DNA of 10,711 nucleotides, from IMG/VR virus record IMGVR_UViG_3300033148_008158; one strand, given 5' to 3'. Below, in pieces: positions 54-6,197 of this stretch. Below the pieces are notes generated by a model. That model worked only from the letters and a program-made list of their open reading frames with translations. It did not search any database and was not told the origin of the DNA. Source of the stretch: a virus. Within the stretch, counting starts at the first letter, position 1. The number at the start of each line of letters is the position of its first letter. The position numbers and the translations under genes were made by a program.

Positions 54-95
54 CCTACACCGAAAGTCAGCTTCCCTGATCATCCTTATACACCG
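54..95. promoter_or_regulatory. two direct copies of the TACACCG word (CCTACACCGA 54-62; ATACACCGG 87-95) flanking the 3' end of gene 67..822
   Basis: Same 7-8-mer core as the inverted repeats at 832-857 and 4703-4749. The second copy lies inside the last codons of the gene. Confidence 0.3.
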
Positions 96-822
96 GCCAG
101 CCGTTGAGCCTGTGCGCTTCATCGAGTGTGGCCTCAACAAAGGGACCGGCCTCGTCGATGAACTTGTGAGCCACGCTGCCGAAGCCCATTCCCTCTTCGG
201 CCCACATCCCTTTAGCTCGAATGGCGACCTGCGCCATGGCGTTGTCGATCTCGGGAGGGCTCAGGTGTCTGAGCGCACAGGTCACCATCTCGATCTGGTC
301 TTCCGAGACTTCGACCTTCGAGACCGCTACGAGGTTGGTCAAGACCTCTCTGACCGACTCGCGTGCTGCGGTGACGTGGCTTTCGCTCACGGGCTCGGGC
401 TTGGGTCGCTTGCTGTCGAGCTGGAAGTCCGCCTCGATTCTCGGCATGAGCGGCCGAAGAGCTTCGGGGGCGGTCAGGTCCGGAGGGCCGATGAAGATGA
501 GTCTCTGGAGGTGGCGGTTGTTGAGCCTGAGCTGATCGTTGTTGGTGCTGAGGTGTTCAACAATGTCGGGATCGCCAAACCAGTCGCCTGGGTTGCGAAT
601 GAAAACGAAAACAATCTCGTCCCTCGTGGGCATGTGCTCAGGCAGGTCCTCGAAGGTCGCATCCTCGACGATCTTCACCCTGTCCTTCTTGGGGTCGAGC
701 TTGGTCAAGAGCCCACTGACGAACTCGTCGGGCTCTGTGGTTGCGACGTAGAACATCGGAGTCAGGCATCTGATGTGGAAGAGGACGCCGAAGTCCTGAT
801 TGAACAGTTTGTTGAACGCCAT
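67..822 (-). CDS. hypothetical protein (251 aa)
   Basis: Long ORF with balanced amino-acid composition (F, N, K, I, M present) and high GC3. The overlapping + ORF 112..867 has antisense-type L/G/V/D/R-rich composition. AGGA lies 7 nt upstream of the ATG at 822 (mRNA ...GGTGTAGGAcctagtATG). No recognisable family. Confidence 0.6.
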   Translation of the reverse strand: MAFNKLFNQDFGVLFHIRCLTPMFYVATTEPDEFVSGLLTKLDPKKDRVKIVEDATFEDLPEHMPTRDEIVFVFIRNPGDWFGDPDIVEHLSTNNDQLRLNNRHLQRLIFIGPPDLTAPEALRPLMPRIEADFQLDSKRPKPEPVSESHVTAARESVREVLTNLVAVSKVEVSEDQIEMVTCALRHLSPPEIDNAMAQVAIRAKGMWAEEGMGFGSVAHKFIDEAGPFVEATLDEAHRLNGWPVYKDDQGS

Positions 823-831
823 ACTAGGTCC

Positions 832-857
832 TACACCGACGGGGTCGTTTCGGTGTA
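832..857. promoter_or_regulatory. perfect 8-bp inverted repeat TACACCGA-N10-TCGGTGTA in the 822 / 868 divergent intergenic region (putative operator, same word as 4703-4749)
   Basis: tacaccga at 832-839 and tcggtgta at 850-857. Lies between the minus start at 822 and the plus start at 868. Confidence 0.45.
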
Positions 858-867
858 TGAATCTTCC

Positions 868-1116
868 ATGGCCATTGGCATCAGTCTCGGTTCAGAGTTC
901 GACGACGACCACCGGGACGAAGGTTCGATGTTCGGCCCCAAGCCAGGCACGTGGTGGGTAGCCTCGAAGTCAGACCCCCGGTTCAACATGGACGGTCACG
1001 ACCTCGTGGGCGGCTTCCGCTGTCCCTCGTCTGCTCGTGAAGCGTTTGAGGGGAAGGCCAAGGAGCTGGGCGTGCCTCTTCCAGATGACCTGGAGTTTGG
1101 CTACATGAAGGACTGA
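868..1116 (+). CDS. hypothetical small protein (82 aa)
   Basis: In-frame ATG at 868 within + ORF 112..1116, downstream of the divergent start at 822. High GC3 and protein-like composition. The competing minus ORF 970..1584 is R/P/G-rich junk. The start is tentative. Confidence 0.4.
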   Translation: MAIGISLGSEFDDDHRDEGSMFGPKPGTWWVASKSDPRFNMDGHDLVGGFRCPSSAREAFEGKAKELGVPLPDDLEFGYMKD

Positions 1117-1119
1117 CCC

Positions 1120-1434
1120 ATGTGTGCAGAGTCTGATTGCACTGAGCCCATCCACCACTGGTTCGAACTGACGTACTCCAGCTACCTTGTCCTGCCGCGG
1201 TCGGCCCTTGAAGCGATGCCGGTCGAGTTCCAACGGCGGTTCGTCGCCTTGCTCGACGAGATGCAGGAGACCATCGACCCCTCGGTCTTTCCGGACAGAT
1301 ACGCGGTCAACATCCGGGGCGACAACGGTCGCTTCGAGAGTGACCCCTACGCTGACTACCGGCGAGGTCCTCGCGTTCCTCTCAGGGCAGGACCAGGCGC
1401 CCGTGAGGCAGCTGCCCCAGAGCGGGGTTGCTAG
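1120..1434 (+). CDS. hypothetical protein (104 aa)
   Basis: ATG 4 nt after the stop of 868..1116, which suggests a coupled pair. The first ~70 codons have high GC3 and look like real protein. The C-terminal ~25 codons are low complexity and overlap convergent gene 1382..1897, so the true end is uncertain. Confidence 0.4.
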   Translation: MCAESDCTEPIHHWFELTYSSYLVLPRSALEAMPVEFQRRFVALLDEMQETIDPSVFPDRYAVNIRGDNGRFESDPYADYRRGPRVPLRAGPGAREAAAPERGC

Positions 1435-4656: not shown

Positions 4657-4702
4657 TTACCTCGGTGTTCGAAGCGACCCTAATTCGGGCCGCCCTCTGA
4701 CC

Positions 4703-4749
4703 TACACCGGCACGACGCCTCGGAGACCAACTTTCTGACAGCCGGTGTA
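4703..4749. promoter_or_regulatory. perfect 9-bp inverted repeat TACACCGGC-N29-GCCGGTGTA in the mvp / 4745 divergent intergenic region (putative operator)
   Basis: tacaccggc at 4703-4711 and gccggtgta at 4741-4749 are exact reverse complements. The pair lies between divergent starts 4656 (minus) and 4745/4760 (plus). Confidence 0.5.
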
Positions 4750-5191
4750 TTCAACAGGGATGCTGGACCTCACCAACACCTACGAGCAGCTCTACGAGCA
4801 GTGCGCTGAGACCCTGGGGATAGCCCCCGTCGTGATCATGCGGCATGGGACAGGGACCTTCTTCGTCTTCATCTCGGAGTTCGTCGGGGCTCCTATGTAC
4901 AAGGGGTCAAGCCCCGACGGGTTCCTCCAGGCGTTCGCTCAAGCGACGGAAGAAGTTGCCCAGAAGCATATCTCAGAGGCCACTCGGAAGAGTTGGGAGG
5001 TCGAGCCCTTCCAGGCGTTCGGGGAATGTCATGTGGACATGACTCAGATCCGGGCCATCGAGCGAGGGGATTATGACCAGGAGCGGGGAGACTGGCGGGC
5101 CATCCTGGTGTTGGCCGGCGGGGATCGCATATCCGTCTCGCTGTTCGTCCAAGAGGCTCTCGTCGCCCTCAACAAGAAGGGGCTGGCCTGA
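4745..5191 (+). CDS. hypothetical protein (148 aa; start GTG 4745 or ATG 4760)
   Basis: ORF divergent from mvp with protein-like composition. Its stop overlaps the next gene's start (TGATG at 5189-5193). No recognisable family. Confidence 0.55.
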   Translation: MYSTGMLDLTNTYEQLYEQCAETLGIAPVVIMRHGTGTFFVFISEFVGAPMYKGSSPDGFLQAFAQATEEVAQKHISEATRKSWEVEPFQAFGECHVDMTQIRAIERGDYDQERGDWRAILVLAGGDRISVSLFVQEALVALNKKGLA

Positions 5192-5772
5192 TGAGCATCG
5201 AGCTGGGGATCGGGCTTGTTATCACACTCGCTCTTTTCGTCCTGTGGGCACACAGGATGCAGAAGGATGAGGACAAGCAGAACAAAAATCGTCTCGACGC
5301 CAAGCTCAAGACCATCGAGCTGGAGAAGCTCATCCGCGATGAGCGGCATCGAGCTGAGAAGGCTGAGCACGAGTTACGAATGGGAAACAGCCCTGCCAGT
5401 GAGCTGATCAGAACCCTCAACCAGTTCGACGCTCCCCCAACGGTCTACCTCAACGGTCAGCTCTTGGCCCCAGCGCTTGATTACACCCACGGTGAGGACG
5501 GCTTCCGGTTCATCTTCAACCTGAAGGTCCGGGATGTCCTTCAGGTGCATTCCCTCGATGAGCGCACGGTCTCGATTCTCGACCGACCCGTTCACGTAGG
5601 GGATGTGGTTGCCATCACACCCACGGGGGCAATCGACGAAGAGGCCAGCCTGGAGCAGCTCCGGGCAGCCGAGCAACGACTCATAGCCGACCACCCTCCG
5701 GATGAGCCTGAGCCCAAGCAGACTTCTCGGTACGATATCATCGCCCGAGATGATGACGAGGAAAGCCTCTAG
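5191..5772 (+). CDS. membrane-anchored coiled-coil protein (193 aa)
   Basis: N-terminal hydrophobic helix LGIGLVITLALFVLWA, followed by a charged coiled-coil-like segment (KDEDKQNKNRLDAKLKTIELEKLIRDERHRAEKAEHELR) and an acidic C-terminus. Translationally coupled to 4745..5191. Confidence 0.6.
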   Translation: MSIELGIGLVITLALFVLWAHRMQKDEDKQNKNRLDAKLKTIELEKLIRDERHRAEKAEHELRMGNSPASELIRTLNQFDAPPTVYLNGQLLAPALDYTHGEDGFRFIFNLKVRDVLQVHSLDERTVSILDRPVHVGDVVAITPTGAIDEEASLEQLRAAEQRLIADHPPDEPEPKQTSRYDIIARDDDEESL

Positions 5773-5867
5773 GAGCCTCTCTACGGACCTGAGGGCCTCC
5801 TAGGTGTGCTAGGGCGTTCGGGGCGGCAACGGGCCTCTGAGGGGCCTTCAGGGCGTCACAAAGAGGC

Positions 5868-6179
5868 TCAGACCAGCAGGCAAGACCACTCGATGTCGAG
5901 GGTGCTTGAGGGGCTGACGATGAGGTGCAGGAAGTCCTGGACTCGCTCGCCGCACTCGGGGGCTCGAAGGATGGCTCGATCCACTCGGATGGTCTTGTCG
6001 GGCTGGAGCGTGACCTTCATCCGGCTGTTCCAACAGAACTCGACCGGCAGCGGTTCGCTGACGGGCTCGTCCCTATCGTAGAGCTGGATGGTGGCGCCCT
6101 TGGTCTTCTCGCCCATCACCCGGTCGGGCAATGGCAGGAAGGTGACGCCTATGAGCTGGAGGAAGGTCCGGCGTTGCAT
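5868..6179 (-). CDS. hypothetical protein (103 aa)
   Basis: ATG at 6177-6179 preceded by GGGGG (mRNA gctgggggtATG). The upstream in-frame extension to 6332 is R/Q-rich junk and overlaps gene 6200..6661. Confidence 0.5.
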   Translation of the reverse strand: MQRRTFLQLIGVTFLPLPDRVMGEKTKGATIQLYDRDEPVSEPLPVEFCWNSRMKVTLQPDKTIRVDRAILRAPECGERVQDFLHLIVSPSSTLDIEWSCLLV

Positions 6180-6188
6180 ACCCCCAGC

Positions 6189-6197
6189 ATACACCGG
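6189..6197 (+). promoter_or_regulatory. single copy of ATACACCGG in the short gap between genes 6200..6661 and 5868..6179
   Basis: Exact 9-mer shared with 87-95 and with the reverse complement of 4742-4750. Confidence 0.3.

Follow-up and report, generated by a model that had tools for sequence, protein, structure and literature searches.

The locus and its recurrent word

The window, a stretch of 10,711 nt belonging to a 20.6-kb parent contig (L001), carries in its left half a homologue of the major vault protein gene (mvp), several small genes and repeated copies of the heptamer CGGTGTA, which reads TACACCG on the opposite strand (Table 1). JGI calls a 901-aa mvp product from ATG 4650; compared with the parent contig, a 26-bp deletion in the window shifts the frame of its C-terminus. 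The true start of the gene previously placed at 4745 is 4760.

Table 1. Coordinates of genes, word copies and other elements in the window
Feature	Position	Strand	Remarks
Start of conserved two-hairpin unit	1..45	-	Downstream of copy 56-62; continues beyond the window
Exact copies of CGGTGTA/TACACCG	56-62, 89-95, 832-838, 851-857, 4703-4709, 4743-4749, 6190-6196		All seven copies, listed singly below
CGGTGTA copy	56..62	-	Second tandem copy, just past the gene 67-822 stop; two hairpins follow
251-aa gene	67..822	-	Led by copy 832-838
CGGTGTA copy	89..95	-	First copy of the same-direction tandem, inside the final codons of gene 67-822
CGGTGTA copy, then N9, ATG 822	832..838	-	Heads gene 67-822
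CGGTGTA copy, then N10, ATG 868	851..857	+	Heads gene 868-1116
82-aa gene	868..1116	+	Led by copy 851-857; two-gene unit with 1120-1434
TGGTGTA, then N9, ATG 1897	1907..1913	-	Weak copy, before Tat-signal gene 1382-1897
Terminator-like hairpin and T-run	1921..1954	-	Downstream of mvp
mvp, major vault protein homologue	1942..4650	-	
GAGG Shine-Dalgarno sequence of mvp	4660..4663	-	9 nt before ATG 4650
CGGTGTA copy upstream of mvp	4703..4709	-	52 nt before ATG 4650; the only putatively leadered case
CGGTGTA copy, then N10, ATG 4760	4743..4749	+	Heads operon 4760-5191 / 5191-5772
103-aa gene	5868..6179	-	Tat-like N-terminus MQRRTFLQL; led by copy 6190-6196
CGGTGTA copy, then N10, ATG 6179	6190..6196	-	Heads gene 5868-6179
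TCAAC-N16-CGTA, six copies (context 7565..10581)	10557-10581, 9630-9654, 9125-9149, 8840-8864, 8457-8481, 7565-7589	-	Second motif, right half

We found seven exact copies of the word in the window, compared to 0.49 expected from dinucleotide shuffles (n = 200); the highest count in any shuffle was 3, and none of the 200 reached 7. The over-representation claimed by the first-pass annotation is borne out, its expectation of 1.3 copies having been conservative, and its sites are confirmed with one correction (89-95 in place of 88-94). When one mismatch was tolerated, 35 matches were found compared to 19 expected. This excess is only modest, and the signal therefore resides in the exact word. 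The weaker copy that had been noticed near 1905 does exist (at 1907-1913) and is probably not a member of the set, as it is not kept in the relatives L007 and L014. There, the conserved element is a different one, TCTTTTGTGGCACC, which adjoins the mvp terminator.

The two inverted pairs also lie where they had been placed. The pair at 832-857 reads TACACCGA-N10-TCGGTGTA, with 12 nt separating the 7-mers, and the pair at 4703-4749 reads TACACCGGC-N29-GCCGGTGTA, with 33 nt separating them. Both are perfect over 8-9 bp and are situated exactly inside the two divergent gaps.

No start codon lies at N9-11 from either of the tandem copies, 89-95 and 56-62, and these copies need a separate explanation, for example tandem promoters or a small RNA. 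Both tandem copies are conserved, the one at 89-95 being kept in L007 and L014 despite a differing protein C-terminus. The two-hairpin unit beyond them ends in a T-rich tract in L001, and its pairing is kept in L014 while both sides of the stem change (GGTGGG/CCCACC versus GGAGGG/CCCTCC), with a second covarying position at ACGGAC..GTCCGT in L001 versus ACGGGCC..GGCCCGT in L014. The unit is either a terminator or a small RNA, or both.

Orientation, start-codon spacing and conservation

All start-linked copies of CGGTGTA point toward the downstream gene, and the tight constraint on the word is its distance to the start codon (N9-N10). In the parent contig, 8 of the 13 exact copies lie 9-11 nt before the start of a long ORF, compared to a background of 3.2%, which answers the first-pass concern that the word might be a by-product of codon usage. 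Beyond the window, five more copies stand at N10 from a start, and the word-linked starts at 15354 and 18390 are identical to independent JGI start calls. CGGTGTA ranks first of all 7-mers at preceding starts, both in the parent contig and in L007 (4 of 9 copies there; background ~3%). Across 61 kb of four contigs (L001, L007, L014 and L017), the spacing from GGTGTA to the start is N10 in 15 cases, N9 in 7, N11 in 1 and N13 in 2. Counted over the parent contig and relatives of ~80% identity, 22 of 64 copies of this hexamer are located at N9 or N10 from a long-ORF start.

The logo of the start-linked sites reads yC-GGTGTA-K-G. From -30 to -3 relative to GGTGTA, no position exceeds 0.41 bit of information; nothing is conserved upstream of the word, and it therefore has no -35 element. 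The -35 hexamer of a housekeeping sigma-70 promoter, expected 16-18 bp upstream of the -10 hexamer, is missing from this stretch, and a scan of the window for sigma-70 consensus promoters returned zero. The two positions that follow GGTGTA hold T (14 of 23 copies) and G (17 of 23), a preference and not an invariant feature. The continuation ...GGTGTATG is present in 11 of the 23 start-linked copies, and TAGG, TAAG, TATT, TATC and TAGT also occur.

Dyad symmetry is confined to the divergent gaps, where alone the copies are paired. Elsewhere, the best upstream match to an inverted partner of a start-linked copy is 4-5 of 7 positions, the same as in random windows. Since an inverted partner is lacking from these copies, the unit is one asymmetric site. 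In the 45-bp gap between genes 822 and 868, which accommodates two divergent starts, nothing is conserved besides the two word copies.

We compared these sites with those of relatives sharing ~80% DNA identity (L007 and L008) or 74-84% MVP protein identity (L017, L014 and L019). Orthologous starts retain the word even where flanks, upstream genes and N-termini have changed, and both inverted pairs are kept, so that the element is conserved at the loci where its absence would have counted against it. The orthologues of gene 868 show TGGTGTA-N10-ATG in both L007 and L014, and those of gene 822 show N9-ATG in L007 and N10-GTG in L014. At the 4760 orthologues (L007, L008 and L017), the N-terminus is four codons shorter, and the word is still found at N9 from the new ATG. 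The 6179 orthologues have N10-ATG in L014 (MRRRAFLQL) and N13-ATG in L007 (MKRRTLLQL), with unrelated upstream sequence in each. In some relatives, the upstream gene has been replaced and the word retained; the motif's position shifts with respect to the upstream sequence, yet stays N10-11 from the ATG. L014 alone has a dihydroorotate dehydrogenase gene, and this too carries the word, at N9. As exceptions, two orthologous starts in L007 have lost the word, and one orthologue each has an outlying spacing of N13 and N11. The mvp copy is kept as CCGGTGTA in L007, L008, L017, L014 and L019. The spacing of the mvp pair, whose constancy the first-pass annotation had proposed to check, turns out to vary: three relatives have 33 nt and three others 35 nt, and the spacer sequence has diverged.

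Translation signals and a candidate promoter

Of 17 word-led genes, 2 have a Shine-Dalgarno-like 4-mer at 4-10 nt from the start; none of the 15 genes under the other two motifs does, compared to 17 of 44 (39%) motif-less genes, which are mostly operon-internal. The sole gene with a distant word, mvp, has a GAGG site. At gene 822, the word had been credited with supplying an AGGA ribosome-binding site; this AGGA belongs to the flank, and the L014 orthologue lacks it at its start (CGGTGTAgttcttggcaGTG). If transcription starts on the A of the ATG, the invariant TA that ends the word lies at -12/-11 in N10 sites, where the first two bases of the -10 element canonically stand in sigma-70-family promoters. 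The position that would be -7, corresponding to the otherwise key T of a sigma-70-type -10 element (TAnnnT), is not conserved. The combination expected of leaderless genes, an absent Shine-Dalgarno sequence and a -10 region ending ~6-7 nt before the start codon, is seen here, with the word as the putative -10 region.

From these sequence patterns, we consider it reasonably probable that CGGTGTA serves as a class-specific promoter element, asymmetric, single and lacking a -35 box, in an MVP-encoding clade of uncultured high-GC phages, with transcription starting at or next to the ATG. The word would have a DNA-level role in transcription initiation, serving as a -10-like region with no -35 counterpart. 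Its reader could be a phage sigma factor or polymerase encoded elsewhere in the genome, or a host alternative sigma factor; neither a sigma factor gene nor a polymerase gene turned up in the 20-45 kb available for each clade member. The transcript would begin ~11 nt past the word's last A. At most genes, this start point would be the A of the ATG, giving a leaderless mRNA or one with a 0-3 nt leader, which would need no Shine-Dalgarno sequence. For mvp, with its word 52 nt upstream, the same rule would give a leader of ~42 nt bearing the GAGG site. Where two word-led genes diverge, two promoters would stand back to back, and this arrangement would itself produce the appearance of an inverted repeat.

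Alternative readings and known phage systems

An unlikely alternative is that a phage repressor or activator binds the word as a monomer, at an asymmetric site that overlaps core promoters in the manner of the operator/stoperator sites of Cluster A mycobacteriophages. Stoperators are asymmetric 13-mers bound by a known monomeric immunity repressor that blocks elongation, scattered in short intergenic spaces with an orientation strikingly correlated with transcription (PMC9283540). The word follows the same orientation rule and is likewise asymmetric, present in many copies per genome and located in short intergenic spaces (PMC9283540). In addition, the tandem copies at 89-95 and 56-62 lie at a gene end and look more like roadblock or operator arrays than promoters. 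However, the conserved core is 7-9 bp, compared to 13 bp in stoperators, and its fixed distance of N9-10 to the start codon is not described for them. No separate promoter-like element is conserved beside the word, even in the 45-bp divergent gap, and a search for a candidate regulator identified none.

Quite unlikely, in our estimation, is an RNA-level signal associated with start codons, which could enhance translation initiation, bind a factor or mark a site of processing into short-leader mRNAs. Several copies follow a co-directional gene and could lie in polycistronic RNA, and the GGTG within the word could presumably pair with part of the 16S 3′ tail. Against such pairing, GGTG is 12 nt from the ATG, which would be beyond workable spacing, judging from the order of GGAGG and GGUG in anti-Shine-Dalgarno pairing. 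Nor does a signal acting in RNA readily accommodate the mvp word, which is 52 nt from an ATG served by an ordinary GAGG site, or the tandem copies without a start codon nearby, and the words in the divergent gaps would need promoters inside the opposite gene. The start-associated sequence (SAS) of Cluster K mycobacteriophages is the known counterpart: it is 13 bp long, holds an AGGAG ribosome site 3-7 bp from the start, and precedes many non-structural genes of differing families across subclusters, its function being untested (PMC3203893). The word resembles the SAS in being an asymmetric repeat in one orientation directly 5′ of mostly ATG starts of varied gene families (PMC3203893). Unlike the SAS, it has no Shine-Dalgarno core, sits 9-10 nt from the start and serves mvp from 52 nt.

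The model of the first-pass annotation, in which palindromic operators are bound by a dimeric transcription factor that co-regulates divergent promoters, now appears very improbable. It would account for the two perfect 8-9-bp inverted pairs in the divergent gaps and for their conservation in relatives. Most start-linked copies, however, are single, with no partner above chance, and the half-site spacers are unequal (12 versus 33 nt, the latter varying from 33 to 35 nt among relatives with diverged sequence). The copies are asymmetric and oriented to the gene, pointing at a start 9-10 nt away, or 52 nt in the case of mvp. Because the word stands at N9-10 before starts, an inverted pair is fully predicted wherever two word-led genes diverge. 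For ORF 7606-7905, the binder proposed with this model, neither Pfam nor PDB gave a sequence hit; its single-sequence structure model contains three helices with a mean pLDDT of 60. A few copies are driven by coding, among them a GGTGTA antisense inside mvp (TAC ACC, Tyr-Thr, in SYTEPRT) that is conserved even in distant relatives. As a general explanation, chance or the side effect of a common codon pair (Tyr-Thr, read from the other strand) is effectively refuted by the shuffles, by the top rank of the 7-mer for start association in two genomes and by conservation at non-coding positions whose flanks diverge.

Read as a promoter element, CGGTGTA has parallels among phage late promoters. The T4 late promoter is a short word, TATAAATA, without a -35 box (PMC1524935); in T4-type late promoters, it occupies -13 to -6 and is read by the phage sigma factor gp55 with gp33 and the gp45 clamp. 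Both words are short and highly conserved, lie near -10 (a place that, for CGGTGTA, would follow from its ATG spacing) without a -35 box, and are repeated in strict orientation before many genes of one class (PMC1524935). Unlike TATAAATA, the present word is GC-rich (CGGTGTAKG), is unrelated in sequence and would span ~-17 to -9, and most of its targets would be leaderless. Among the called genes on 20-45 kb per clade member, there was no Pfam hit to gp55, gp33 or gp45 homologues. The late promoters of phiKZ, a giant phage with its own polymerase (the non-virion RNA polymerase, nvRNAP), consist of TATG with transcription starting on the G, have no -35 box, and are minimal and oriented, as is the word (PMC4666361). 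Here, unlike in phiKZ, the conserved part is CGGTGTA and TATG is merely preferred; nvRNAP genes were not seen on the available contigs.

A second, bipartite start-linked motif serves as an internal control. In the right half of the window, five copies of this motif, TCAAC-N16-CGTA, stand 8 nt before ATGs 10548, 9621, 9116, 8831 and 7556, and the sixth stands 12 nt before ATG 8444. The clade has 19 occurrences, usually 8 nt before an ATG. Given typical -10-to-start distances, we take this geometry to put the transcription start at the ATG as well. An AAC/CGT architecture is typical of ECF sigma promoters, and the motif shares this signature of AAC at -35 and CGT at -10 (PMC5758882). Each small gene in the right half is preceded by the motif combined with a hairpin, resembling the composite terminator/promoter PeSL cassettes in hyperplastic regions of T4-like phages (PMC4122927). 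PeSL cassettes carry T4-like early promoters, whereas the present motif has ECF-like -35/-10 words, with the ATG 8 nt past CGTA.

The lineage is a phage lineage, and its relation to T4-like or huge phages shows in L018, which carries a T4 Gp23 capsid gene. Upstream of genes, L018 has a recurrent word of its own as well, GCTATTTAAG. MVP relatives are found on IMG/VR contigs of up to 318 kb and in 'uncultured phage' records of 462-735 kb; clade members were sought in IMG/VR, and none were found. The genome may be several hundred kb, and 7-9 conserved bases are few for specificity. A single shared cis-element heads mvp, the 4760 operon and the genes starting at 822, 868 and 6179. Co-regulation of these left-half units, as first suggested, is consequently plausible, while the palindromic operator that was to mediate it is unsupported. 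The word is ordinary in kind; its sequence and its lineage are new.

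Copies of the word and their distance to start codons

The first-pass annotation had reported that TACACCG is over-represented in the window and had proposed that two inverted pairs of it form palindromic operators. The excess is real, as 7 exact copies of TACACCG/CGGTGTA are present in the 10.7-kb window compared to 0.49 expected from dinucleotide-preserving shuffles. One of the earlier coordinates was off by one, both inverted pairs are present as described, and the weak copy it had mentioned is TGGTGTA at 1907-1913.

We oriented every copy as CGGTGTA and read the downstream sequence for start codons, which were found at distances of 9 or 10 nt (N9 or N10; table). 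The exception is mvp, the gene of a major vault protein (MVP) homologue, where the word lies 52 nt before ATG 4650 and a GAGG ribosome site lies 9 nt upstream of that ATG. Because the copies are aimed at their own diverging genes, the apparent inverted repeats are two words placed back to back.

No start codon follows the conserved tandem copies 89-95 and 56-62 at the usual distance. Copy 56-62 is followed by a conserved unit, about 70 nt long, which contains two hairpins and then a T-rich tract. Between L001, the readable 20.6 kb of the parent contig, and L014, a related locus, two paired positions of this unit change on both sides while pairing is kept. The unit has no Rfam match, and Rfam and tRNA scans found nothing. 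It may terminate gene 67-822, encode a small RNA driven by the tandem copy, or do both.

At 99.5-99.8% identity, the window matches the end of the 25.9-kb JGI metagenome contig Ga0366833_1009799, from which three indels and nine substitutions separate it. Compared to this contig, 26 bp are missing at window 2152, which frame-shifts about the last 70 mvp codons (the true C-terminus is readable in ORF 1971-2318); 4 bp are missing at 6007, inside gene 5868-6179; and 38 bp are extra at 6235-6272, a segment missing from L001, where two genes are thereby joined in a single 259-aa ORF. These indels could be population variants or assembly errors.

L001 contains 13 exact copies of the word. Beyond the window, five more copies lie at N10 from a start; the starts 15354 and 18390 are independent JGI start calls, and words at N10 suggest corrected starts at 10749 and 14203. 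A plain k-mer enrichment was dominated by codon bias and left the word unremarkable, whereas start-anchored counting singled it out. When all 16,384 7-mers were ranked by how often an ORF of 60 or more codons starts at N9-11 downstream, CGGTGTA was first in both L001 and L007, a syntenic relative (8 of 13 copies and 4 of 9 copies, respectively, over a background of about 3%).

Coordinates of the repeated words, their start codons and neighboring elements (window positions unless a locus is named)
Feature	Position	ATG	Strand	Remark
Word, exact	56-62
Word, exact	89-95
Word, exact	832-838	822	-	N9; found by reading downstream of copy
Word, exact	851-857	868	+	N10; found by reading downstream of copy
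Word, exact	4703-4709
Word, exact	4743-4749	4760	+	N10; true start of '4745' ORF
Word, exact	6190-6196	6179	-	N10; within '5868-6332' ORF; protein begins MQRRTFLQL, Tat-like N-terminus
Second motif	7565-7589		-
Second motif	8457-8481	8444	-	12 nt after CGTA
Second motif	8840-8864		-
Second motif	9125-9149		-
Second motif	9630-9654		-
Second motif	10557-10581		-
Third word	6679-6687		-
Third word	L001 4025
Third word	L001 19103
Third word	L001 14177		-
Third word	L014 19409		-
Third word	L017 2670
Two-hairpin unit	1-62, on into L001 10642-10730		-
Homology onset at word	L001 4470-4480, L007 1180-1190			upstream genes unrelated
Pyruvate kinase gene	L014 1019-2023			absent from window's contig
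Dihydroorotate dehydrogenase gene	L014 7315-8289			absent from window's contig

Conservation of the word in relatives

Relatives were gathered as a graded series by their MVP protein. The word is kept in those with 62-65% GC, namely L007 (MVP 86-90% identical to the window's; DNA identity about 80%), L008 (88%), L017 (84%), L019 (76%) and L014 (74%). It is absent from the 41-51% GC relatives L004-L006, L009-L013, L015 and L018 (MVP identity 57-72%); in L004 and L010, the two examined at their start regions, the ribosome sites are of the ordinary GGAG type. An IMG/VR scan with the MVP protein returned only 57-58% identical relatives with 47-48% GC and no word, which are uninformative on its conservation.

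Pooling L001, L007, L014 and L017, the spacing between the core GGTGTA and a long ORF start is N10 in 15 cases, N9 in 7, N11 in 1 and N13 in 2. The pooled consensus is yC-GGTGTA-(T/G)-G, and upstream positions carry no information. The distance to the start codon also persists where the surrounding sequence has changed. In L007, L008 and L017, four N-terminal codons are gone from the 4760 orthologue, and the word lies at N9 before the ATG that now starts it. At the L001 10749 gene, an alignment of orthologues shows the word shifted against the upstream sequence with its spacing kept at N10-11. The word also stands at N9 before the dihydroorotate dehydrogenase gene, which L014 alone carries. 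Two orthologous starts in L007 have lost the word, those of the Tat gene 1897 and of the L001 14203 orthologue; at the Tat gene, what is conserved instead is another, T-rich word next to the mvp terminator. In the alignment at the MQRRTFL gene, the homology of L001 with L007 starts exactly at the word, and the genes upstream are unrelated. Promoter words may also be joints for the exchange of gene modules.

Promoter reading and competing explanations

The divergent gaps need promoters. Since the window contains zero sigma-70 consensus promoters, and the 45-bp gap between genes 822 and 868 has nothing conserved besides the word copies, we read the word as a promoter. On balance, it is probably a class-specific phage promoter, and we infer that transcription would start on the ATG. 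A start on the A of the ATG would place the invariant TA of the word at -12/-11, the canonical positions of the first two -10 bases. A Shine-Dalgarno sequence is present in only 2 of the 17 word-led genes, both of them cases of the flank GTAGGA, as compared to 17 of the 44 motif-less genes, which are mostly operon-internal; the leadered mvp has one too. The -7 position is not conserved, and the spacing variants N11 and N13 occur.

A more specific version of the promoter reading is tentative. The word would be the entire promoter for a -35-independent specificity factor, gp55-like or non-canonical, encoded elsewhere in a high-GC, possibly huge MVP-phage genome; with starts on the A of the ATG, it would mark a leaderless temporal class beside an ECF-like leaderless class. 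The available 20-45 kb contain no sigma factor or polymerase gene. Searches with PHROGs (ten proteins encoded in 67-7556) and Pfam (window proteins) yielded no sigma factor or regulator; their only matches were MVP, ArdC and one family of unknown function. If true, the system would parallel T4 or phiKZ late transcription in a GC-rich, leaderless form.

By analogy, late genes of large phages are as a rule headed by short promoter words that lack a -35 box. T4 late promoters have TATAAATA at -13 to -6, read by gp55 (PMC1524935), and phiKZ late promoters have TATG, read by the phage's own polymerase (PMC4666361). The word is not TATAAATA and not strictly TATG; functionally it looks like a class-specific phage promoter consensus, with a sequence outside all named families.

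In the right half of the window, a second motif, TCAAC-N16-CGTA, heads six genes, of which one is ArdC-like and five are small. The ATG lies 8 nt after CGTA in five of the six window copies. All 19 copies in the clade have this layout; the fuller form of the motif is (G/C)CTCAACA-N15-CGTAGTG, and a hairpin often spans the TCAAC part. Assuming typical -10-to-start distances, its geometry places the start at the ATG. It supplies an internal control for the leaderless-start reading of the word. The second motif shares the layout of ECF-sigma promoters, which are typified by AAC around -35 and CGT around -10 (PMC5758882), and it resembles the PeSL terminator/promoter cassettes of T4-like phages in having one cassette per small gene. 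Separately, a third recurrent word, TCTTCTTGT(A/G), with looser variants CTCTTGTR and TCTTTTGTGG, lies 13-16 nt before ATGs without a fixed spacing to the start; it may represent another promoter class or belong to terminator T-tracts.

Several other mechanisms could account for the word. It could be an asymmetric regulator site, like the L5 stoperators (PMC9283540), though we consider this unlikely; its sequence is not that of a stoperator. A start-associated signal acting at the RNA level, like the Cluster K SAS (PMC3203893), from which the word again differs in sequence, is similarly doubtful. Further readings were rejected: an RNA hairpin from the 832-857 repeat would be untranscribed under the leaderless model, and single copies argue against it; the same two arguments apply to an N4-type hairpin promoter. 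GGTG as a Shine-Dalgarno variant would have a spacing of 12 nt. An archaeal TATA-type promoter fits neither the distance of the word nor the bacterial -35/-10 layout of the second motif.

The palindromic operator is improbable. Start-linked copies outside the divergent gaps have no inverted partner, their best upstream match within 60 nt being 4-5 of 7 positions, as in random windows. The mvp pair is separated by 33 nt in three relatives and by 35 nt in another three, and the spacer sequence has largely diverged. The spacer of the 822/868 pair, whose sequence is not conserved in L014, is 12 nt throughout because two start-codon distances fit one 45-bp gap. Therefore, with lone copies unpaired and pair spacers either variable or set by start distances, the functional unit is a single oriented word. 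Consequently, the operator model loses its core: the proposed co-regulation stands insofar as the genes share a control element, while the palindromic unit does not. Chance is negligible, as none of 200 shuffles reached 7 copies.

The phage lineage and the use of the word

The mvp product (1942-4650, minus strand) has the Pfam domains MVP_shoulder and Vault_3. Its homologues number in the thousands in metagenomes, including contigs of 300-500 kb, and occur in the huge-phage records LR756500/1/3 (about 40% identity) and in Myxococcota MAGs (about 47%). The gene itself is not new, because earlier preprints report MVP homologues from viruses and bacteria (bioRxiv 10.1101/2023.11.10.566534, 10.1101/872010), the viral ones in a 2023 preprint.

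MVP relatives are found on IMG/VR contigs of up to 318 kb and in 462-735 kb 'uncultured phage' records, and L018 (MVP 65% identical, 41% GC; 9300-19150) has a T4 Gp23-type capsid gene; the lineage is therefore a phage lineage, and it has no cultured representative. In L018, several genes are preceded by a distinct repeated word, GCTATTTAAG, similar to the T4 late promoter, and each sub-lineage seems to use a compact promoter word of its own. A megablast of the window against GenBank phages found no match. Searching genome contigs with an MVP alignment confirmed no locus and thus gave no host or prophage lead. Scanning IMG/VR for CTCAACA-N13-CTCGTAGT returned 58 single matches of unrelated GC and without clustering, which is chance level; the clade is absent from IMG/VR.

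A phage promoter consensus is an ordinary kind of feature and its interest is modest, though here the sequence is new and the lineage uncultured. The word is a usable annotation rule for this clade, covering start codons, transcription units and promoter classes. It corrects the '4745' gene to 4760, the '6332' ORF to 6179 and the L001 gene called at 10809 to 10749, and it sets the mvp start at 4650. The genes also fall into at least two promoter classes, one for the ArdC module and another for mvp and the secreted proteins of its module. Beyond annotation, its value lies in the leaderless expression and dedicated specificity factor it predicts. If the leaderless reading is true, the full genome would encode a dedicated sigma factor or polymerase, and the host would translate leaderless mRNAs efficiently, which would narrow the host search.
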